From the NCBI RefSeq assembly GCF_004210375.1, contig NC_134837.1, positions 252,553,964-252,617,963 of the forward strand: a stretch of DNA of 64,000 nt, written 5' to 3'. This DNA comes from Tachypleus tridentatus. Taxonomy: Eukaryota. Both the position numbers and the translations under genes were made by a program. Shown here one piece after another: positions 1 to 51,215 of the stretch (the stretch's first letter is position 1; each line of letters opens with the position of its first letter). Under the pieces are notes generated by a model. It did not search any database. It had not been told where the DNA came from and saw only the letters and a list, made by a program, of their open reading frames with translations.

Positions 1-140
1 TAGGTTTCGAGTAGCCCAAAAGTTGGCGGTGGGTGGTGATGACTAGCTGCCTTCTCTCTAGTCTTACACAGCTTAATCAGGAAGGGCTAGCACAGATACC
101 CCTTATGTAGCTTTGCGAAAAATTAATAACAAACAAAAAG
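1..140 (+). mobile_element. tRNA-derived SINE, 3' portion. Its 5' part lies left of the window.
   Basis: Matches the body and tail (gtagcccaaaagttggcggtgggtggtgatgactagctgcc...aaacaaaaag) of the full-length copies at 8336 and 12448. Confidence 0.7.
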
Positions 141-801
141 TTTTATTCAGTTTAGTTTAGCATGTCTTAAAAATTTATAATCCTCTAAAGTTTTTGTTTA
201 TTGTATATTACATATTGAGAATAGATTTAACATCATATTCTTTCACCCCACTGAAAACAGTTAAAAGGAGAGATTTCTTCATTACTTTACTTTATTATTT
301 CCAAGGTTGCATGTAATGTCATATACCTGTGTATTAATCGTACATTATTTTCTCATACCTTGACGACAAAATATCACAAGTGAATTGAAAAACCTACAGC
401 AGGGTTAACAAAATTTGAAATTTCAGATTAAAAAAGAAGATAATACAATACTATTTTTAATTTCTTTAATATAATGAAGTTTAGATAATTTTAAAATCTT
501 ATTTAAACAATAAAAAACACCCAAAAGGTTAAAATTTCTTTACTGGGAGTCGGTCCGCGTTAGAGACAAAGGAAGGTGTTGTCCAATGCTGCCAGAAACA
601 TTTTATTTCAATGTTTTTTTTTAAATTTTCCTTCGCATTTTAAGCTTGACCCGACATCTACTATCGTTATTTAAACTAACCATGTGTTCATATGTATGTT
701 TAGGAATCACAATATTTAATATCTTGTTTAACAAAAACGTAAAAGAAGGTAATAGCCAATGTGCACTACACAATAAGGCTGAAACTTAAAACAAAAAGAT
801 A

Positions 802-2100
802 TACACTGCTGGCCAAAATCTTAAGGCCAATAAACATAAAGAAAAAATATGCGCTTTGCGTTGTCAGACTCAACCACTTATTTGAGCTTCGAAAGATGAA
901 AATAAAAAAATGGAAAATAAAAATAAAATACCTTTTTGGCATTTAATAGGGAAAATGTGAACAATATGAAATTAGCCTTAATCGATAAACACGTAACGAA
1001 ATTCAGTCATTTGTGTTCAAGCATTAGCGTTGTCAACATCTCCTGTGTTACAATTGGTAAAAACATGGCAAAGGCTAAAAAGTTGACAGAGTTTGAACGT
1101 GGCAGAATTGTCGAGCTGCAAAAGCAAGGTCTTTTTCAACGTGCCATCGCTGGTGAGATTGGACGTAGTAAACCTGCTGTTGCAAATTTTTTAAAAGACT
1201 CTGAGGGATATGGAACGAGAATTTCAAGTGGTCGGCCCAAGAAAATTTCGCCGGCGTTGAACAGGAGGATTCGAAGGGTTGTCCAGCAAGATACCATCCT
1301 ATCATCGAACTAGATTAAGGCCCTTATGAACTTAGAATGCAGATCAAGAACAATAAGACGGCATCTACAAGAGAAAGGCTTTAAAAACCGTAAGCGTCTT
1401 CAAAGGCCACGCCTCCTTCCACACCATGAAACAGCTCGGTTAAACTTTGCTGAGAAGCACTAAACATGGGATGTAGGAAAGTGGAAGAAGATTTTGTTCT
1501 CTGATGAGAAAAAAATTAAGCTGGATGGTTCACATGTCTTCCAACGCTACTGGCATGATAAGGATATCCCACCTGAGACATTTTCTACTCGACACAGTGA
1601 AGGAGGTTTCATCATCATCTGGGGTGATTTATCCTTCCATGGAACAATGGAGCTTTAGGTTATACAGGGACGTCAAACAGCAGCTGGCTACACTGGTATG
1701 TTGGAGAGAGCATCCTTATTTACTGAAGGCCCTCGTTTGTGTGGAAATGACTGGATCTTTCAGCAGGACAATGCTGCAATCCATATGCCTGCAGGACAAA
1801 GGACTTTTTAATGGAGAATAACGCGATTCTTTTGGACCATCCAGCGTGTTCGCCCAAACCGAACCCTATTGACAATATTTGGAAGTGGATGGCAAGGGAA
1901 GTCTAGAGAAATCGATGTCAATTCCAAACAGTGCATGATCTTCGTTAAGCCATCTTCACCACTTGGAATAACATTCCAGCCAGTCCTTTACAAACGCTTA
2001 TATCGACCATGCCAAAATGTATGCCAAATTTCCTCAGCTTTATAAATATAAGACAAAACAAAGAAAAAAAGATTTAATCTTTCGAGATTAGGTATTCAAA
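802..2100 (+). mobile_element. Tc1-family DNA transposon remnant. The left TIR is present and the right end is lost or decayed.
   Basis: The left end tacactgctggccaaaatcttaagg resembles the C. elegans Tc1 TIR (CAGTGCTGGCCAAAAAGATATCC). The internal transposase ORF has HTH and DDE motifs. No matching inverted right TIR was found. Confidence 0.6.
1066..2040 (+). pseudogene. Tc1-like transposase pseudogene with at least 4 frame breaks or stops
   Basis: Frame A MAKAKKLTEFERGRIVELQKQG... is the paired-like HTH. The DDE region is split across frames: [43 protein letters not shown]. The C-terminus is ...STMPKCMPNF. Confidence 0.8.
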
Positions 2101-2149
2101 TTAGCCTTAAGCAGGATTACTTGTTTATTCATTCATGATAAAATAGTAA

Positions 2150-2388
2150 AGGTTTGGTTTGTTTTGAATTTCGCGCATAGCTACTCGAGGATTATCCTTC
2201 CCTAATTTAGCAGAATAAAAGTAGAGGGAAGGCAGTTAATCACTACCACCCACCGCCAGCTCTTGGGCTACTCTTTTTACCAACGAATAGTGGGATTGAC
2301 CGTGATATTCTAACGTCCCTATGGCTGAAAGGGCAAGCGTGTTTGTGTGACGGAGATTCGAACCTGCGACCATCGGATTATGAAAGAA
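2150..2388 (-). mobile_element. tRNA-derived SINE copy, head-truncated
   Basis: Reverse complement of the SINE body (gaaggcagttaatcactaccacccaccgccagctcttgggctac) plus the T-arm relic ggagattcgaacctgcgacc. Confidence 0.75.
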
Positions 2389-2541
2389 ATGGTATGTACT
2401 GTAGTAGTTTCTTCTTTCAGTTGGTTAACTTACACTAATTTACTTTGTACTTTATGTTTCAATGATTTTATCAAAAGTAAATTTAAATTATTCCATGTTT
2501 TAAGGTCGATTACTCGAATAAATACAAGAGATTTGTTGGCG

Positions 2542-3423
2542 ATGGAATCCAGGTTGACCAAAGAAGAAGCCCTGTATTTTGCATCTAAAGTTCTTGAGAT
2601 ACCAGAGGCTAAGAGAAAATTGGCAACAGATCGCAGTGCTTTCCTAGATCATCTTATAGAGACGATCCACCAAGTAATTCCTTATCATAATATATCTTTC
2701 CTTTCACTGGAACCGGAACATCGTTACATACCAACATGGGCTGGAATTAAAGAAGCCATGATGGCTAAACAAGGAGGATCGTGTTACATTCTCAATGTCT
2801 TTGTGAAATATTTGCTTCAAGCTTTGGGGTTTGACGTGTATCATACTGCATCTGCGTTTGGATTTCCAAACAATCATATTGCCACAATTGTTCGAAACTT
2901 GTCGGCACGTGGCACTAAACATCTGGTGGATTTCAACGCCTTCCCAACGTTCAAGGCAATCCCATTAGATTTCGAAGAAGAATCACCAGTTTATAGCATG
3001 TCATATCTCAAATTTAAGTTTGTTCGTCAAGGAAATTTAATAATACGAGTTCATAAAACTTTAGACGTTCTTGTACCCGAGAATCGGCGTGATAAAGACG
3101 GTTGGTCTGATTATTTTATTTTTGATCTTGAACCTCGAGATCTTTCTTACTTTGAAGAACACATGACTAAAGCATACCTCGTTGCAGAAGTGAACCCTCC
3201 AGTCTTAGAAAATTTATATTTTATTAGCTTTCCTGGACTCAAACTCTGCGGTATCAAAAATAAGTTTGAGCTCTCAGAAGGAGCCGATCAGAAAATTCAA
3301 TACCAGCAGCTTTCATCAAAGTTCGAAGTGGTTCAGTCAATTATTAACAAATGTCCACAAATTCCCGAAGATCAAATCATCTTAGCGATTGACAGAATAA
3401 ATTTGTTCACTGTTTACAAGTAA
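2542..3423 (+). CDS. Arylamine N-acetyltransferase (NAT, pfam00797-like) homolog. 293 aa, intronless.
   Basis: ATG at 2542 (MESRLTKEEALYF...) to TAA at 3421-3423. It aligns with vertebrate NAT1/2: HQVIPYHNISF matches HQIRAVPFENLN, QGGSCYILNVF matches RGGWCLQVN (catalytic Cys), NNHIATIV matches TGMVHLLLQV (His), VDFNAFP matches VDAGFG (Asp), FIFDLEPRDLSYFE matches FTLEPRTIEDFE. The upstream part of the six-frame ORF 2347-2541 reads through a SINE and is not coding. Confidence 0.85.
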   Translation: MESRLTKEEALYFASKVLEIPEAKRKLATDRSAFLDHLIETIHQVIPYHNISFLSLEPEHRYIPTWAGIKEAMMAKQGGSCYILNVFVKYLLQALGFDVYHTASAFGFPNNHIATIVRNLSARGTKHLVDFNAFPTFKAIPLDFEEESPVYSMSYLKFKFVRQGNLIIRVHKTLDVLVPENRRDKDGWSDYFIFDLEPRDLSYFEEHMTKAYLVAEVNPPVLENLYFISFPGLKLCGIKNKFELSEGADQKIQYQQLSSKFEVVQSIINKCPQIPEDQIILAIDRINLFTVYK

Positions 3424-4367
3424 AGACGAAACGTGTTGCTTCATCCTTTTATTACTTCCTGAAGAAAATAAAAGATTCAACTTTCTTATTGTATTAAATG
3501 TTTAAATCATGTGTCGAAATGAAGTTGCGTATTTGTAGCCTTAGGCAAAGTTTTATTTTTTTCTTATCAATAAAAGAAATGTTTTAACCGTTTTATTATA
3601 TAAATTGTTTAGCATTACATTTAAAGGTAACTGTATTTACCATTCCTTAAAGTTGTAAACTATATGAACGATATACTGTAATTTTTTTTATTTCCAATAA
3701 ACTCGAATATTTTTCCCCAAAATAGTTTCTTTTCGCATTTACTTCGATCCTGTGAACATCACTTTACTCTTTTGTGAAGACTGGGTGGTACAAAACACTT
3801 ATATAAATTGATTTATTTTTGGGCAAATTATCTCTTCGACGTTTTGTTAACATAATAATTACAGCGCTGGACGGTGAATCGAAGGCTCGAGACCAGTACT
3901 ATTTTACCTGCTTTATCATCCTTGGATAAGTTATGAAAGTAAATGTTTATTCTGGTGTTTGGTTCCAAAGGCCTAAAAAATCCACTGTACTAGCTGATTC
4001 TACTGGGTTTTTGGTTAATAAATCAAATTAAGAACAGCTACTAGTACGTGAACTCTAAAGGACTTTTTTAACCTGCCCGTTTAACCCACATGCTCAAAAG
4101 ATGGGAGTTCAGGTTGAGAATTCCAATTCCTTTCTTTGATAAAACGTTTTCATTGGACTGTTTGTTTCTTACAAAACTGTCAAGGTAATGAAAGAATGCT
4201 TTTTATGTATTTATCTTTACCATAAAAAGAAATGATTTAGCTAACCCAGAAATCACTACAATCAACCATCCGCGATGCTCGTTCCAGTCAGCACTGGTCC
4301 CTTCCCAAAAATAATATAAACTAATTGGTGATCATACAAGCTCGAACTTATAATTTCTTGCAAAGTT

Positions 4368-4615
4368 ACTATTGGATGTTTGTTTTTAAATTTGCAGTAG
4401 TCGTCCCTAATTTAGCAGTGTAAGACTGGAGGGAAGGCAGCTAGTCATCACCCCCCTCCCCAACGCCAACTCTTGGGCTACTCTTTTGCCGCCAACGAAT
4501 AGTGGAATTGACCATGACTTTATAACGCCCCAACGGCGAAAGGGGCGAGCATGCTTGGAGGGATGGGGTTCGAACCTACAACCCTCATATTACGAGTAGA
4601 GAGCCCTGCAAAGTT
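4368..4615 (-). mobile_element. tRNA-derived SINE copy
   Basis: The reverse complement contains ggttcgaaccccatccc (T-arm), the anticodon-loop relic ctactcgtaatatgag and the body gtagcccaagagttggcg...gtgatgactagctgccttccc. Confidence 0.75.
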
Positions 4616-6865
4616 ATTTTATTGGTGGGAGACTTTTGGAGCACACTGACTGCTAATTAGCAGCATATATAAAACCCAATTCAGAATCATTTTGACTAAA
4701 ACAATCAAATAAACAACAAGCTAACGTTTAACTCCATTTTGTTTCCAACTAACGTCTGGCTATCTGTGCTGTATCCATTACAGATATCTTACACAGATTA
4801 TAGGGTTAAAAGCTCTCAAGCTGATAGGTTAACTATCAGATAAAAGTTTGTTTGACAAATAATAATTTTTGGTAACGTTTTTACGAAAATTTCTGTTACA
4901 CACATGTGTGTTTTATCTGTTTTCGCGAAATGCCTCAAAACTGGTAATATTCTATTTTAACTGTTTCAAATACAGGATGGGGCCATTTGATTTCGAGCTC
5001 AAAGGGCACCTTAAATTTAAACACTCGTTAAAGATTTTAGCATTAGTCAAGTTTCTCGACTTATTTTTGGCACCCTTGGCAAACCAAAAAATATTGGATG
5101 TAACTTCGTAAACATACACATATGATCACTGAACCATGGCAACTAACTGTACCTCTCCTATGTATGTCGTATAATTTTATATCTTTTGGACAACAGATAC
5201 CATCCAGTTTTGAATTCTGACCACAATTTGTCATTTTTTATAGAAGAGTTAACACAAAAGATCACAAAATCACTATATTGAGAAATGGGAAGACAACTTG
5301 TGACAAGAATACAAGGACACTACAAGATTAATGAAAATGGAGAGATTAGCCATTGTTGAACATACTACGTAAACTGGACACAATAAAGACTCCGCCAAAA
5401 ATAGAATAATCTACTCAGACAACGTTTGGAAAACAAGAAAAATAAAGGGCTCTTGTTGTATCAACAAAATAAAATGTTAGTTAAACAAAAACTTTAGCGA
5501 GCCTAGAAATGAGAAACTTATGGCTACCATTGGTTGAATTCACATTCAGTTGCTCCACCAATCAAAATCAAGAACGAACAACCAATTAAAGCGCATCAAC
5601 CTGAATAATATGTAAGGCCTACAGTACTTTGCATATGGGTCACTTGGTATGTCAAATGTACAGGATTTGTATAGTTGATGTTTATGAAGATATTATGAGC
5701 ATATTGTAAGTTCTGTTTTTGTATAAAGTTTATCACTATGCAACTGACTTTATGAAAAATTGTAATCTGTAAATGTGATGAAACAAACGCTGGGGCTGGC
5801 GTTATGTCTTCTCTAGAACTGGGAGCACTGACCTACTGATACAGGTCTCTGCCGTCTGATTCTGCTGATTGTAATTAGTTCATCGGTTGTCAGATTAAAA
5901 TGTCTAAAACATCTCATTTCAAACCAACATCATGAAGACAACTGCTCCTCTGGTTTTCTTTGAGGCTTTTACTTGCATCTGTAGAACGAAAATCCAACTG
6001 TCCAGAGAAACCACTATTAACTGGTCAAAATTATCAAAAGCCTAGGATATGGAAGGAAGTTAAGGGCACCCAGGTTGCTGACAGTGTTGAGATCACAATA
6101 CTAATTTAGGGGTTACATGCACAGTACTGGGGCTCTACCCCAGAGCAGATGTAAGGCCCATAGATACCATGCATACTTACAAATAATCTGGAAGCTTAAT
6201 GTTCATACCCCATAATTAAAACTTTGTATATTATCTTAAGTTTTATTCACTCTGGTACACTTTATGAATTCACCTACAAATAACTTTTAATTCTGCTATT
6301 ACGGTGAAGAGGAACAGAAGTTTCTGAGTGCCCCTGGTTGTCTAATAGTCCCTTTATTAGATTTTACACTCATAGTAACTGTCAAGTCGATATAATATGC
6401 ATAAACCAGTACATTAATTTTGTTCCTTCACACAGTGTAAATGCCCAACCAAGTCATAGGGTAACCTTGGTTAAACTTACTGAATAATTTTTGGATTAAA
6501 AAATGAAATTCACATAACTTTATTTAATTCTATTATTTAATGTGTCATGAAATTTCCATAATTTTACTCAGAGATTTTTCAACTAAGAAGCCGAGTCCAA
6601 AAAGCAATCTACAAGTGATTAAAATGTGGTTCAAAACAAAAACAAAATGTACATCGTCATCAACTGAAATTATTGGAGATTTTATACAGTATTATCTGTT
6701 CTAATGTAAAATACAGATAATTTACAAAAAAAATATTTTTATACCATGATATTTAATCTAGTATCACATAAATAATTTATCACAAGATTACTGAAATCAA
6801 ATTAATTTATATGTATATCTGAAGTGATGCAGTGCCTAACAAATGAGGGTTTTTTTCTCCTGTTA

Positions 6866-7018
6866 TTATTCCAAGCTGGTTTTCCACAGAAGCAGATGAA
6901 CGTGACCACTGGCTGTGCCACAGACAATACGAATGTTGTCCACTGTTCTTAACATTTTACGGCCAAAAGTATGTACAGAAACTGCACTGATAGGTACTGG
7001 CATGTGAAACTGTCCCAG
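6866..7018 (-). CDS. Duplicate copy of the terminal coding exon of the NACHT-WD40 gene, ending in a TAA stop
   Basis: Acceptor cttttacag, then LGQFHMPVPISAVSVHTFGRKMLRTVDNIRIVCGTASGHVHLLLWKTSLE*. Identical in organisation to 19454-19606. Confidence 0.6.
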   Translation of the reverse strand: MGQFHMPVPISAVSVHTFGRKMLRTVDNIRIVCGTASGHVHLLLWKTSLE

Positions 7019-7180
7019 CTGTAAAAGAAATTAGGTGAGAACATCAAGTGGATTTCTAGTCTATTCTTCATTCCAAAGTTTTCCTTGTGAAAGCAAAATT
7101 CTCATCAACAAGACAAAACTGTACAATTAGAGCAAATCATTTGTAGTATTCAGTGATGTCGAGAAAACCCACTTGTAGAG

Positions 7181-7355
7181 AAATATATATGTAAAAACGG
7201 CTCGTTTGGGTTGAGAACATTTTTTACGAAGAGGAGTGAACAACGTTTCAACCTTCTTCGGTCATCTTCTTCGTGAACCTGATGTTGACCGAAACATTGT
7301 TCACTCCTCTACGTAAAAAATGTTCTCAACCCAAACGAGCCGTTTTTACATATAT
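7181..7355. repeat. Near-perfect long inverted repeat (hairpin). Arms about 70 bp with AT-rich ends. MITE or foldback-like.
   Basis: aaatatatatgtaaaaacggctcgtttgggttgagaacattttttacgaagaggagtgaacaacgtttcaacc, then a loop of about 30 nt, then the reverse complement arm. Only 2-3 mismatches. Confidence 0.85.
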
Positions 7356-7556
7356 ATTTGTAGTATTGTTTTCAAAGAACAACATTTCCCATGAAAATGT
7401 AATGTGACTTTAAATTTACCATTTTCAATTTCTGTAGTGATAAATGACATGTTTAAACAATTGAATAATTTGTTCTTAGAGAATGAGAGTACGGCTATTC
7501 AAAGTGTGCCATTAAGACAAACATATTATAAGAGTACAAAATAAACTAGACAATAC

Positions 7557-7661
7557 CTGTTTCTGACTGAACAGATCCCACACCTTCGGTGTTCCATCAA
7601 GTGAAGATGTAAATAAAAACATTTCTGTACAGCAAATAGCTGTCAAAGACTTTGTGTGCAT
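7557..7661 (-). CDS. Duplicate copy of the penultimate WD40 exon of the NACHT-WD40 gene
   Basis: ttttacag|ATG..., reading MHTKSLTAICCTEMFLFTSSLDGTPKVWDLFSQKQ, then |gtattg. This is the tail of a WD40 repeat (SSLDGTPKVWDL). 105 nt, phase 0. Confidence 0.65.
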
Positions 7662-8335
7662 CTGTAAAAATACAATGCAGATAACAGACTATATACAGTC
7701 AAATCATAAATTATGTTACGGCTAATAAACAAGTATAGGTCAACTGGGTCTTGAAGACAAGATTGTACTGATGATTTACAGAAATTAAAACTTTTTTTCA
7801 AGTGATGTTAAACCAAAACATAGATTTCTCTCAAAAAAACTTTTTTACTACAATTTCTCTTGTTTGTCATGGAAACAAAGCATCAGAAGAGTTAGTTGTC
7901 TCCCAAAGACCAACCTGTACAAAAGTATAATTACTTCTCAAACAACATCCAACAAATCAGTTGCTACCATACATTCTTATATGTGTCTTTCAAAGCTATA
8001 CTAAACAGAATTTCTTTAGAATTTCCAAACTTCTTATTAATGTTCTTGATCGGCGTACGTAACTCTGTTATAAAGTCCTTGGTTATGTTGTAACCTGATC
8101 TACGGCCTCTTTTTTGTCTTATTTTCGGTTTAGATCTTATTTCACCGATCACTGGATTGTGATCAGAGCCTCAGTCTACTGATGGGTAAATTCTAGAATG
8201 TTCTTACTTTGTGTGTAATCTATCTGATTTGTTACAATTCCTTAACCATCCTGAGGTAACCTCCAAGTGTACAAAAACTGAGTGATCATTACATTATATC
8301 AAATGTTGCTGATCGTTAAGCCTATTTCCTCGCCA

Positions 8336-27558: not shown

Positions 27559-28852
27559 TTTCATTCTCTATTAAAGGAAGAAAAATACAACAGTAAACCT
27601 GATGTGATAACATATAATAAAAACTGCTGAGGAATATACAGATTCATAATATTTTAACAACTTCTTTCTAGAGTTTGGGAAACAAAATACTAAAACAATA
27701 CATTATAACAGGCTGTATCCCAGGACGACTGGTATTAACAATTTTACAAAAAGAAAACAGAGAATAATATGAAGATGACCTAAGAAGGTCAAAATGTTGT
27801 TCTCTGTTTTATTGTGGTAAAAGTGTTCACACCTATACAAGAAGTCAATAGATTCATTTTTACTTCAAGTGAGTTTCTCGTCATTATGAATCAAAGCAGA
27901 CTTCTACAAAATACACTGTTTGTCTTATTACATCTAATAGAAATAAGTATGAAATTGCATAGTATGGGACTACCAATATATGTAAATTTTAATGTAACTA
28001 CTGCATGGATATCACCAAAACACTAAGGATCTTGAAAGAACATTCCTATAAAAACCATTTAGAAAAACAATTAACATCCAATATACATCATTCATGGTAT
28101 ATAAAATTAGTGTATGTCATCACAGGTAATCTAACTGATGCAGCTTCTTAGGCTTATGCCATCCCAGGTAAGTATTTACTAACAGAGTAATCGCAGGTTT
28201 TATTCTATAACCCCTACATTCAACAACCTGTGGTCTTTTTTGTGGGTTTTTGTTAATTCGTGGCACATCTTGCATAGGAACTTGTCACTGATGGTTTCAA
28301 GAGGTTCATTATCAAGAAATTATAAAATTCAAATATGATTTAGAATATGTGAGAGAAAATACCACTTTGCTACGAGCTGAACAACACAAAATATGAAAGA
28401 TACCTACAGGTTAAATGGAAAAATTCACATTAACTAACAAGCTCAACAGTCACTAATTGTATCTGATGACCATAAGATAACCACTGTATCTTCTCAGTGT
28501 TATTCATGTAATATCCAGGCAATTTGTACATACACATCTTTTATGATTTTCTCTGAATCAATCATCTCTCCTTTAACAGTAAAGCACCAAACTGATGAAA
28601 CAATGCATTGTAATCTTTGTAAGCAAGAATATATTAACAAATATATTTGATTAGCTATGCTCATTTAATCCAGGTTTATTTTTAGATTTTAGTTCTTCTC
28701 CAAATAGACAGCTTGCTGTAACTTAAGTTAATACTAAATCTTCAATTGTTATAAATATATTATTGGCACATTTGTCATTGTATGACATTATTAAACCTTT
28801 GGAAAGTAGAAATCATAACAAAAACAAACTTTGAAGAATGAGTACAATTTAC

Positions 28853-30470: not shown

Positions 30471-30839
30471 CTATTAAGAGAAAATGTGTTATAGAGTGGA
30501 GAAACAAAACTAAAAACATACTTTACTAGATTAGACAGTTTAACAGTAAATGCTTCAAAACAGACACAACACGTTATAATCAGTAGGCCAAGCTGATTAG
30601 CAATAGTCCTAGCACTATCAATTCATGTTCTTTACTAATTGTCTGCTGGTAAATTTAAGAAACTTGCTTACTGATTTATAGTTAATAGTATAAATACACT
30701 ATGGCACAATGGCTGTATGACAGATATACATTTTTGTGTTTACGAAGCCAATGTAAATTCCTTGTTCAGGTATAGTTCTTCAGTTTACAGAAAAATATGT
30801 TTATAATATGTACACGAATCTTAGCTAACGATTACAACT

Positions 30840-31130
30840 CATCTAACAATGGATCATTACGCACACAAATAAATCCTACCTGACAATAACAACTTCACTG
30901 GCAGTGGGTCATAATGCACACAAGTGAATTCTACCCAACAATCACAACTCAATTAACAATGGGTCATAATGCACACAAGTGAATTCTACCTAAAATTTAT
31001 CACAATTTGACTAACAATGGGTCATAATGTGCACAAGTGAATCCAACCTAACAGCCACAACTCAAGAAACAATGGGTCACAATACATACAAGTGAATCCT
31101 GTCTAGAAACTGTAACTCAACTGATAATAA
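30840..31130. repeat. Minisatellite, 57-60-bp unit, about 5 copies
   Basis: Recurring ...caactcaattaacaatgggtcataatgcacacaagtgaattctacc... Confidence 0.8.
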
Positions 31131-33420: not shown

Positions 33421-33659
33421 TAGATTTGAGTTTGAATCTTTTTTAAGGTTTTAGTTTAATTTAGTGGACAAGACAGTCCAGATGTATCAAAAATTTTCTC
33501 CTTGTCCTTTAATGTTATAATTAATATATAGAGAAAAAATACTTTCCATTCTATTCAAAGGTAGAAACGTGTTTGGTGGTTTATTTTTAAATTTCAAAGT
33601 TCTTCACTTTTGCTACACATTTTAAGCATTATCACTTATAAACAGTTGGTTATTGGTGA

Positions 33660-33890
33660 TAACACACTTAACCAAGTGTTTATAACAACACACATCAAAA
33701 AGATAAAAATTAACCAAATGCTTATAAGTAATAATACATATTATAAAGATAACAATTAACCAAATGTTTATAAGTGATAATACACATTAAAAAAGATAAC
33801 AATTAACCAAATGTTTATAAGTGATAATACATATTAAAAAAATAACAATTAACCAAATGTTTATAAGTGATAATACATATCAAAAAGAGG
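33660..33890. repeat. Minisatellite, 57-bp unit, about 4 copies
   Basis: taaccaaatgtttataagtgataatacatattaaaaaagataacaat repeated. Confidence 0.85.
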
Positions 33891-36609: not shown

Positions 36610-37250
36610 TATTCTTTCACTTGAATATATTGCACCAGCAGAACTACTTTAACTTATTCTTTCACTTGAATATATTGCACCAGCAGAACTACTTTAACTT
36701 ATTCTTTCACTTGAATATATTGCACCAGCAGAACTACTTTAACTTATTCTTTCACTTGAATATATTGCACCAGCAGAACTACTTTAACTTATTCTTTCAC
36801 TTGAATATATTGCACCAGCAGAACTACTTTAACTTATTCTTTCACTTGAATATATTGCACCAGCAGAACTACTTTAACTTATTCTTTCACTTGAATATAT
36901 TGCACCAGCAGAACTACTTTAACTTATTCTTTCACTTGAATATATTGCACCAGCAGAACCACTTTAACATATTCTTTCACTTGAATATATTGCACCAGCA
37001 GAACTACTTTAACTTATTCTTTCACTTGAATATATTGCACCAGCAGAACCACTTTAACATATTCTTTCACTTGAATATATTGCACCAGCAGAACTACTTT
37101 AACTTATTCTTTCACTTGAATATATTGCACCAGCAGAACTACTTTAACTTATTCTTTCACTTGAATATATTGCACCAGCAGAACTACTTTAACTTATTCT
37201 TTCACTTGAATATATTGCACCAGCAGAACCACTTTAACATATTCTTACAT
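36610..37250. repeat. Minisatellite, 45-bp unit, about 14 copies with 2 variant unit types
   Basis: Unit cttgaatatattgcaccagcagaactactttaacttattctttca. Three units carry ccactttaacat. It produces the spurious 213-aa ORF 36621-37262 (NILHQQNYFNLFFHL x14). Confidence 0.95.
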
Positions 37251-38340: not shown

Positions 38341-39238
38341 AAACACAATATTCATTCACATAAGTTTAATGTAGTTCTCTACCTATTGCCTCAAAAAAAT
38401 GCTACAAAAAGGACATTCTAGAATTGTTGTAGAATTTGTAATTTGAAACAAGATAAGAATCAATAAAACAAAATTTGTACTTTGATTTTAAATCCAAAAA
38501 CCTTAGAAAAAGCATTTTAAATTTTGAAACAAAATTGGCGTTCACTAAATGTCTGTAGTTAATATTAGGTTGAGGAATAATTCGTGAGCGTTTTTAAATA
38601 ATTTCATTCAAGCATTACATGCAAGACTATACAACACTTCAATGCATGAACACATTACACCCAAAACATTTATTATGATACTTTATTTCATGTAATACCT
38701 AGGTATATAGTATGCATTGTTTTAAACGAAATTGCAAGAAATTAAATGCGAAAAGCAGATGGTGTCGAAAATGCTCAATTTTGTCCACTTGACATTCCAT
38801 TTAATGAGCTGAAAATGAAAGCAAAAATTAAAGACATATGAAAATCAAACACACCGTCTATTAGAGCAAAAAATTATCTACCAAATGACATGAAATATTT
38901 TGCGAAAGCGTTTCATTTATGAATATATTTTGTTAACTTAAAAAAACGCCCACGAATTATTCCTCAACCCAATATATTTCAACCAAATATAATATACTTT
39001 TCACATTATACAGCCTTATTCAGTATCACTTATTACTCAGTTTATGGAAGGTTAAATCTTCAGCCAAGCAGGTTCGATGCTTATATTTACACAACAAAAA
39101 CTGAATGGATTACAGACTTACATGTAGTTTTTGTCACTGAGCTTAAAAGGTAAAATAAATTATAAGTGGAGGTATATAAACAACTTGATTTTACACTGTT
39201 GATAAACAAAACCAATATTTTTATTATTCGAACCTCAC

Positions 39239-50904: not shown

Positions 50905-51215
50905 AAATGCAGAGATTTATTTACTATGTTAGTGTTTTTATACAAACAAACAAAGCTTTATTACCAAGTTACAAAATAGAAGACAAGTATTACGATGTTA
51001 GTGTTTTTCTACAAACAAACAAAGCTTTATCACCAAGTTACAAAATAGAAGACAAGTATTACATGTTAGTGTTTTTCTACAAACAAACAAAGCTTTATCA
51101 CCAAGTTACAAAATAGAAGACATTTATTTACTATGTTAGTGTTTTTATACAAACAAACAAAGCTTTATTACCAAGTTACAAAATAGAAGACAAGTATTAC
51201 GATGTTAGAAAACAT
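50905..51215. repeat. Minisatellite, 62-70-bp unit, about 4.5 copies
   Basis: gttagtgtttttatacaaacaaacaaagctttattaccaagttacaaaatagaagacaagtattacgat repeated. It produces the spurious ORF 50883-51116. Confidence 0.85.

Follow-up and report, generated by a model that had tools for sequence, protein, structure and literature searches.

How does a palindrome come to be nearly perfect in one copy of a recent duplication and conspicuously degenerate in the other? We analyzed a stretch of 64,000 nucleotides of the Tachypleus tridentatus genome (contig NC_134837.1), hereafter the window, that contains such a pair. A first-pass annotation of the window had proposed a foldback element, a MITE or a long hairpin RNA, with a small-RNA precursor in its inner stem. 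It had attributed the difference between the copies to hairpin-associated instability or to templated correction in one of them. Here we consider what the palindrome is, which copy changed and whether either copy is likely to have a function.

A palindrome in two states within a tandem duplication

Self-comparison of the window aligned positions 1-8017 with 12586-20591 at 98.84% identity, close to the 99 percent estimated previously. The layout fits a tandem duplication with a unit of ~12.57 kb (~12.6 kb) and a junction at 8017/8018, and duplicon copy 1 (1-8017), which runs past the window start, is probably the right-hand part of this unit. On the minus strand, from ~62.5 kb down to 19.45 kb, we found the exons of an NB-ARC/WD40 (TEP1/APAF1-like) gene, the ORFs of which match the APAF1_C, WD40 and TEP1 beta-propeller families. 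The product of LOC143236650 (P0025, 211 aa) is an exact match to the last exons at 23.5-19.45 kb. Of the WD40 gene, the duplicon includes only the final two exons. Thus, the authentic 3' end of the gene is in duplicon copy 2 (12586-20591), whose last two exons are those of LOC143236650, and copy 1 holds a truncated fragment. RefSeq annotates this large gene (20600-62600, minus strand) merely as its 211-aa C-terminal product, and a paralogue elsewhere (P0026) is likewise a short fragment; some of the gene family may have become pseudogenes, or its annotation may be incomplete.

In copy 1, the duplicate of the last coding exon (...LGQFHMPVPIS...LLLWKTSLE*, recognized by its ORF and by P0025) occupies 6866-7018 and that of the penultimate exon 7557-7661, both on the minus strand; the counterpart of the latter in copy 2 is at 20121-20225 (minus strand). 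The two exons are separated by an intron-equivalent of 538 nt (7019-7556, minus strand), with GT/AG splice sites read in the sequence, and the exon junction, between ...DLFSQKQ and LGQFHM..., was confirmed by P0025. The penultimate exon differs between the copies at two positions, both non-synonymous (V to L and L to P), and the L to P change converts the WD-repeat core DGTLKVWD to DGTPKVWD in copy 1. We found no protein model built on copy 1 in the protein database, where the P0025 cluster has a single member. Because copy 1 has the last two exons only, both of its penultimate-exon changes are non-synonymous and it has no protein model, this gene fragment looks unconstrained or decaying.

The palindrome of copy 1 lies in the intron-equivalent and consists of a 69-nt left arm (7181-7249), a 41-nt spacer (7250-7290, AACCTTCTTCGGTCATCTTCTTCGTGAACCTGATGTTGACC) and a 69-nt right arm (7291-7359). 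The arms are complementary at 67 of 69 positions (97%). Pairing is perfect over the outer 48 nt of each arm (7181-7228 and 7312-7359), and just two mismatches, at arm positions 49 and 64, interrupt the remainder. At 179 bp the whole palindrome is the longest inverted repeat of the 64-kb window and slightly longer than the 170 bp (7181-7355) first noted, and its near-perfect pairing was confirmed. Its placement in the last intron of a gene holds for copy 2, which is within the annotated gene; copy 1 is within the truncated two-exon duplicate. Folding, which had been suggested as a check, returned a long hairpin of -113.4 kcal/mol for the plus-strand RNA (z -19.6), -116.5 kcal/mol for the minus-strand RNA (z -19.7) and -77.2 kcal/mol for single-stranded DNA, and in all three folds shuffled sequences were far from the energy of copy 1.

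In copy 2 (19769-19923) the outer stem is gone. Compared with copy 1, the left outer arm (19769-19810) has lost 3 bp at two places and 1 bp at a third and has ~7 substitutions, and the right outer arm (19893-19923) has 13-bp and 5-bp deletions, one substitution (C>G) and a 1-bp insertion. With multi-bp deletions of 3, 3, 13 and 5 bp, a 1-bp insertion and ~8 substitutions in the two outer arms together (ATAAAATCGGTTAGCGGTTGAG), the changes are deletion-biased, 25 bp having been lost and 1 bp gained. In contrast, the inner arms and 40-nt spacer (19811-19892) are intact, a single 1-bp deletion being their sole difference from copy 1. Pairing is left only in the inner arms 19812-19831 and 19872-19891 (20 nt, 95%), and the fold of copy 2, at -46.9 kcal/mol (z -3.5), retains only this inner stem. 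The stem measures 20-21 bp as DNA and 24 bp, with wobble pairs, in the minus-strand (transcribed) RNA; the 24-bp inner hairpin folds at -37.7 kcal/mol (z -5.7). The loss of outer pairing described in the first-pass annotation is therefore real, but the largest deletion is 13 bp rather than 14 and the inner stem 20-21 bp rather than 25. We ruled out CpG decay or deamination as the source of the copy-2 substitutions, because the changes are not CpG transitions.

The two copies differ by 68 events over 8 kb. The outer arms (96 bases) account for 16 raw events, or 13 after adjacent changes are collapsed, where ~2 are expected; relative to the flanking 1 kb, with 20 events, the excess is significant (Poisson P = 1.3e-7). 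The inner arms and spacer (83 bases) have the one event, and the difference in event density between outer and inner parts is also significant (Fisher p = 0.0017). Four multi-bp indels fall in the arms versus one in the other 7838 bp of the duplicon (P ~1e-9). When differing alignment columns were counted per 100 bp, the 7200s and 7300s had 11 and 21, versus 0-7 elsewhere in the duplicon, the exceptions being a 10-bp indel at ~7798 and the duplicon edge. We conclude that divergence is concentrated on the palindrome, the most divergent spot inside the duplicon, as had been claimed. The indel at ~7798 is an insertion of TACATTTTTA in copy 2 (20363-20372) with adjoining substitutions, and it is the sole multi-bp indel of the duplicon outside the palindrome.

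Divergence along the rest of the duplicon is a mosaic. Positions 1-4500 and 12586-17100 differ by seven 1-bp indels only, with zero substitutions; past ~4.5 kb divergence is ~0.5%, then ~2% near the junction at 8017 (20591). This pattern suggests recent gene conversion or unequal crossing-over superimposed on an older duplication, and part of it could be homopolymer consensus error. The low-divergence part contains an intronless arylamine N-acetyltransferase-like (NAT) gene on the plus strand (2542-3423, duplicate at ~15124-16005; Pfam Acetyltransf_2). It is identical in both duplicons and exactly matches XP_076330929.1 and XP_076337128.1, from the RefSeq loci LOC143236513 and LOC143239667 (isoform X3). 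Several NAT paralogues at 87-99% identity are on the same chromosome and homologues are present in Limulus; more than two copies of the duplicon probably exist. Both duplicons also contain a small overlapping palindrome centered on ACACATGTGT (4879-4930 and 17464-17515; 31-nt arms, 71% complementary), identical in the two.

A short interspersed repeat with a hairpin core

The sequence related to the palindrome extends beyond its arms. In copy 1 the full repeat unit is ~330 bp (7106-7436, plus strand), defined by homology with two further copies, and its flanks are not palindromic. Copy C (27609-27930, minus strand) is an independent, diverged insertion (nhmmer E = 1e-7), and copy D (21488-21737, minus strand) is diverged and partial, with mainly the left flank and left arm recognizable. 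A profile built from the family alignment recovered all four loci and nothing else within the window. The 64 kb thus hold three independent insertions: copies 1 and 2, which are one insertion duplicated later, copy C and copy D.

Copy C has an inverted repeat of its own (27731-27770 and 27794-27833; 40 nt, 80% complementary) at the position homologous to that of copy 1, which indicates that the long-hairpin design is a feature of the family and no local accident. Its center is close to that of copy 1 (GAACAAC.TTT..ACCTTCTT.GGTCATCTTC, 28 of 32 identical), and the best-conserved segment falls within the copy 1 spacer. We considered whether the outer arms might be complementary in copy 1 alone and rejected this. 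The right arm of copy C, the left arm of copy D and the right arm of copy 2 carry GGCT.GT.TGGG or its complement, and therefore outer-arm symmetry is also a family feature.

Copies C and D remain homologous to copy 1 for ~75 bp past each arm, as in CGAGAAA.C.CACTTG.AG (left) and TAGTATT.TGTTT (right). It follows that the arms are not terminal repeats and the TA-rich ends not target-site duplications. The (AT)4 found at each end of the palindrome belongs to the arms, and in C and D it aligns with family sequence. We found no complementarity between the flanks outside the arms (p = 0.47-0.99). A larger decayed foldback reaching beyond the arms was rejected, since flank complementarity was not above that of shuffles or genomic controls. 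A 12-bp direct repeat, ATTTGTAGTATT (7138-7149 and 7348-7359), is offset from every repeat boundary, and no target-site duplication was found flanking the element, with three insertions to compare. The 179-bp palindrome and the ~330-bp unit are within the size of a MITE (under ~800 bp), and the unit has no meaningful ORF; the inverted repeats of a MITE, however, stand at its termini and are bounded by a target-site duplication. Taken together, the sequence data best describe the palindrome as the hairpin core of a short interspersed repeat of ~330 bp that is non-coding and appears MITE-like or foldback-like. The earlier suggestion of a foldback or MITE is upheld as to transposable-element origin, given copies C and D, but not as to a simple MITE bounded by TA-rich ends.

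A known element invites comparison: human MADE1, a mariner-derived 80-bp near-perfect palindrome that is the source of mir-548 (PMC1784062). Like MADE1, the Tachypleus repeat is short, non-coding, dispersed in multiple copies and intronic, its core is almost wholly one long hairpin and its older copies have decayed arms. Unlike MADE1, its inverted repeats are not terminal, with ~75 bp of uncomplementary family sequence flanking them on each side, no TA or other target-site duplication and no related transposase were found for it, and it is not known to yield a small RNA.

Two mariner-type sequences lie in the window. One is a frameshifted Tc1/mariner-type transposase remnant (936-2045, duplicate at ~13520-14630, plus strand; weak, sub-threshold matches to Pfam HTH_38 and Tc3 HTH) with ORF fragments that are FSDEKK.. 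and DDE-like. Matching terminal repeats were not found for it, and kinship with the palindrome was rejected on that ground. The other is a clean mariner-type MITE (38563-38974) whose terminal inverted repeats (ATATTAGGTTGAGGAATAATTCGTGAGCGTTTTT) are 34 nt long and 94% complementary, with TA at each side and a 346-bp non-coding interior. What these two sequences have in common with the palindrome arm is a 10-mer at most, TTGGGTTGAG; in the MITE it is located at the terminus, and it may reflect chance or a distant relationship. A tRNA-derived SINE origin of the palindrome repeat was also rejected, as there were no tRNA-like matches.

Outside the window, the repeat family had 0 matches in 31 kb of Limulus DNA (L001 and L002, around the NAT homologues), loci that are not colinear with the window downstream of the NAT gene. 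The family core and arm patterns had 0 exact matches in metagenome and viral contigs, as expected of collections that hold no horseshoe-crab DNA. The window contains other repeats as well. A SINE-like repeat of ~75-200 bp (77-85% identical) occurs at 9-144, 4406-4600, 11791-11999, 12482-12729 and 16989-17184 and again in Limulus polyphemus contig L001 (5133-5246 and 8195-8327), and is therefore older than the Tachypleus/Limulus split. Intronic tandem arrays are present at 21930-22280 (68 bp x 5), 30816-31100 (55 bp x 5.1), 33690-33888 (46 bp x 4.3, with an inverted partial unit at 33623-33660), 36610-37246 (45 bp x 14.2, 98% matches) and 50921-51208 (69 bp x 4.2).

Which copy of the palindrome changed

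Between instability and correction, the two causes first put forward, we lean toward decay of copy 2. On this account, which on the sequence comparison we hold with about even confidence, the palindrome was already near-perfect before the duplication, and a local burst of changes removed the outer stem of copy 2. A ~330-bp element would have inserted in the present last intron of the TEP1-like NB-ARC/WD40 gene. A tandem duplication of ~12.6 kb would then have copied the 3' end of the gene, at a time when the element was already a near-perfect palindrome with at most the two inner mismatches that both copies share. Copy 1, in its truncated and apparently unconstrained fragment, would have kept the ancestral state. 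In copy 2, within the intron of the annotated gene, small deletions together with clustered substitutions would have destroyed the outer 48 bp of the stem. We consider this burst most likely to have been caused by one or a few hairpin-provoked breakage or slippage events followed by error-prone repair synthesis, and selection against long double-stranded RNA in an expressed intron may have contributed.

The evidence for polarity comes from an alignment of all arms in one orientation (the left arm of copy 1, its right arm reverse-complemented, the same pair for copy 2 and for copy C, and the left arm of copy D). At GGCTCGTTTGGG, both copy-1 arms, the right arm of copy 2, the left arm of copy D (GGCTGGTATGGG) and copy C agree, and the left arm of copy 2 alone deviates (GGTTAGC---GG). 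Conversely, the 13-bp and 5-bp segments are absent from the right arm of copy 2 alone and are kept in its left arm, in copy 1 and in copy C. By this alignment every peculiarity of copy 2 appears derived, and its two arms decayed at different places, which is what independent decay from the copy-1 sequence would predict. Both inner mismatches are common to the two copies and are thus older than the duplication; the C/T asymmetry at arm position 64 is also found in copy C, a hint that it may have been inherited from the source element. Background rates make zero symmetry-breaking changes in copy 1 unremarkable (P(0) = 0.25-0.63). The polarity is one that we infer by parsimony against two very diverged family copies.

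Several observations weigh against decay of copy 2. The burst itself, 13 events in 96 bp with four multi-bp indels, is without a demonstrated mechanism. Instability intrinsic to the hairpin should also have hit copy 1, which has no changes, and decay must therefore assume a cause specific to copy 2. Classical palindrome instability yields central or large asymmetric deletions, but the center of copy 2 is intact and clustered substitutions are prominent in its left arm. Long perfect palindromes in mouse transgenes and in yeast undergo 'resolution' by small asymmetric deletions, and the locus is similar in that a long perfect inverted repeat gave way to a shorter imperfect one through symmetry-destroying, deletion-biased changes. 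It differs in that the 41-nt spacer should make extrusion rare, the center of symmetry is untouched in copy 2, about half of the copy-2 events are substitutions and the identical sister copy is unchanged. In addition, the changed region of copy 2 is exactly the perfectly paired region of copy 1, from arm position 2 to 48 with the mismatch at 49 as its limit, and the same picture would arise if copy 1 had acquired a tract by conversion or template switching.

That coincidence is the starting point for the opposite polarity, in which copy 1 is derived. Here an old quasi-palindrome, copy-2-like at least in its left arm, would have been made perfect again when a replication template switch primed on the inner stem restored 48 bp of pairing in one event. 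The copies differ over the very region that is perfect in copy 1 (arm positions 1-48), and this tract stops exactly at the retained mismatch 49, as expected if it was templated from an inner-stem primer. All ~13 events would fall on one lineage (binomial p = 2e-4), a single right-to-left switch would account together for the ~9 left-arm differences, and copy C is an old family member with just such well-paired inner and degenerate outer arms. Single-step creation or restoration of perfect stems by template switching is documented, and the locus resembles those hairpins in that substitutions and indels between close relatives are densely packed within a hairpin arm and one relative is perfectly paired over the whole tract (Loytynoja & Goldman 2017, PMC5453318; Monttinen & Loytynoja 2022, PMC8794818; PMC10710096). 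The defining test of a switch asks whether the derived arm is identical to the ancestor's other arm reverse-complemented, with that other arm unchanged. With copy 2 as ancestor proxy this four-point test fails in both directions for a single event, since both arms differ between the copies (~9 events on the left and 4 on the right). Neither arm being conserved, one template switch from a copy-2-like ancestor cannot yield copy 1: a right-to-left switch leaves over the four right-arm events, including the 13-bp and 5-bp deletions. The copy-1 arm would have to be a mosaic of the two copy-2 arms requiring at least 4 template changes, and even so it mismatches both at position 17 and in the length of a T-run. 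The 47-nt tract would also be long for a template-switch hairpin, and the outer arms of a copy-2-like ancestor barely pair, which makes hairpin mismatch repair implausible. We thus regard a derived copy 1, re-perfected by a template switch, as a doubtful though serious alternative, and regeneration of its outer stem from a decayed quasi-palindrome by a single long switch off the inner stem as unlikely. If a template switch were the origin, the locus would be a freshly dated, paralogue-controlled case in which one mutation made a Dicer-grade 69-bp hairpin, and copy 1 would possibly be an incipient siRNA or miRNA source in a chelicerate. Template-switch signatures were sought in the other small multi-nucleotide clusters of the duplicon, where reverse-complement matches were 5-14 nt, AT-rich and uninformative.

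Ectopic gene conversion could in principle overwrite the palindrome of one copy from another family member or from a third duplicon copy, with either a pristine donor converting copy 1 or a degenerate donor converting copy 2. The setting is favorable to such exchange, because the duplicon is a mosaic rising from zero substitutions in the first ~4.5 kb to ~2% near 8017, at least 2 loci encode an identical NAT protein with several close paralogues on the same chromosome, and the repeat family is locally dense. The shape of the difference is not: a single tract reaching from one outer arm to the other would also have converted the inner 83 bp, which are identical except for one 1-bp deletion and include both shared mismatches, and two separate tracts each ending exactly at arm position 48 would be contrived. 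We consider conversion improbable in both forms. An artefact of assembly or consensus, with the copy 1 palindrome a foldback chimera or polishing error, is hardly credible. Foldback chimeras invert entire read-length segments, and here a 179-bp palindrome sits within colinear unique flanks that match copy 2 on either side. Copies 2 and C have the same architecture in diverged form, both inner mismatches recur unchanged in copies 1 and 2, and the sole hint of artefact is that 1-bp homopolymer indels are the only differences in the first 4.5 kb of the duplicon.

Small RNAs and the significance of the pair

Whichever copy changed, the hairpin could matter as a source of small RNAs, either as an intronic miRNA or mirtron-like precursor or, through the copy 1 stem, as an endo-siRNA hairpin. 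A transcript of copy 1, if made, is predicted to be a 69-bp nearly perfect double-stranded RNA, the inner hairpin persists in copy 2, and the inner core is the part best conserved with copy C. There is also precedent, as palindromic MITEs gave rise to miRNA genes in the case of MADE1 and mir-548 (PMC1784062).

Several results speak against a mirtron or a miRNA. Distances of 162 and 197 nt separate the hairpin (7181-7359) from the splice sites of the 538-nt intron, and since the hairpin ends do not coincide with those sites the mirtron proposed in the first-pass annotation is excluded. A canonical pre- or pri-miRNA has an imperfect stem of ~33-35 bp with a terminal loop and belongs to a described family. 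The stem of copy 1 is 69 bp and near-perfect, which is not miRNA-like, and that of copy 2 is 24 bp, which, with a loop of ~33 nt, falls short of what canonical Drosha/Dicer processing needs. A search of Rfam returned no family at gathering score for the hairpin. Its sub-threshold matches, to plant long-hairpin MIR families at 45 bits or less versus gathering scores of 80-119, reflect generic hairpin shape. Arm and stem sequences had no match in the text part of the horseshoe-crab miRNA supplements of PMC7815833. Conservation of the inner stem between the copies equals the background expectation (P(<=1 event) = 0.51) and is therefore no evidence of constraint. The intronic miRNA precursor proposed earlier is thus not supported by Rfam, the supplements or the inner-stem identity.

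The long near-perfect double-stranded RNA of an hpRNA is predicted for copy 1 alone (69-bp stem, -113 to -117 kcal/mol), and copy 1, if transcribed, would be an siRNA-type substrate. Drosophila hpRNA loci are sources of endo-siRNAs and are typically much longer than this hairpin. Copy 1 is like them in that its transcript would be a long, nearly perfect intramolecular double-stranded RNA, and unlike them in being much shorter and having no evident target. It also lies in a gene fragment without an annotated product. With these results, we consider a functional small-RNA locus of any of these kinds quite improbable, and no function is evident in either copy. For genome annotation, the sequence should be entered as an unclassified hairpin-bearing repeat and masked; a miRNA or mirtron label is unwarranted.

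As a feature, then, the palindrome is of an ordinary kind, and its modest interest is as a curiosity of palindrome evolution with a paralogue as control. The locus is a natural experiment in which two tandem paralogues began with one hairpin, and one is intact and the other is heavily altered, only where the hairpin was perfectly paired. With an outgroup, the pair could tell burst decay from template-switch re-perfection of palindromes in the animal germ line.
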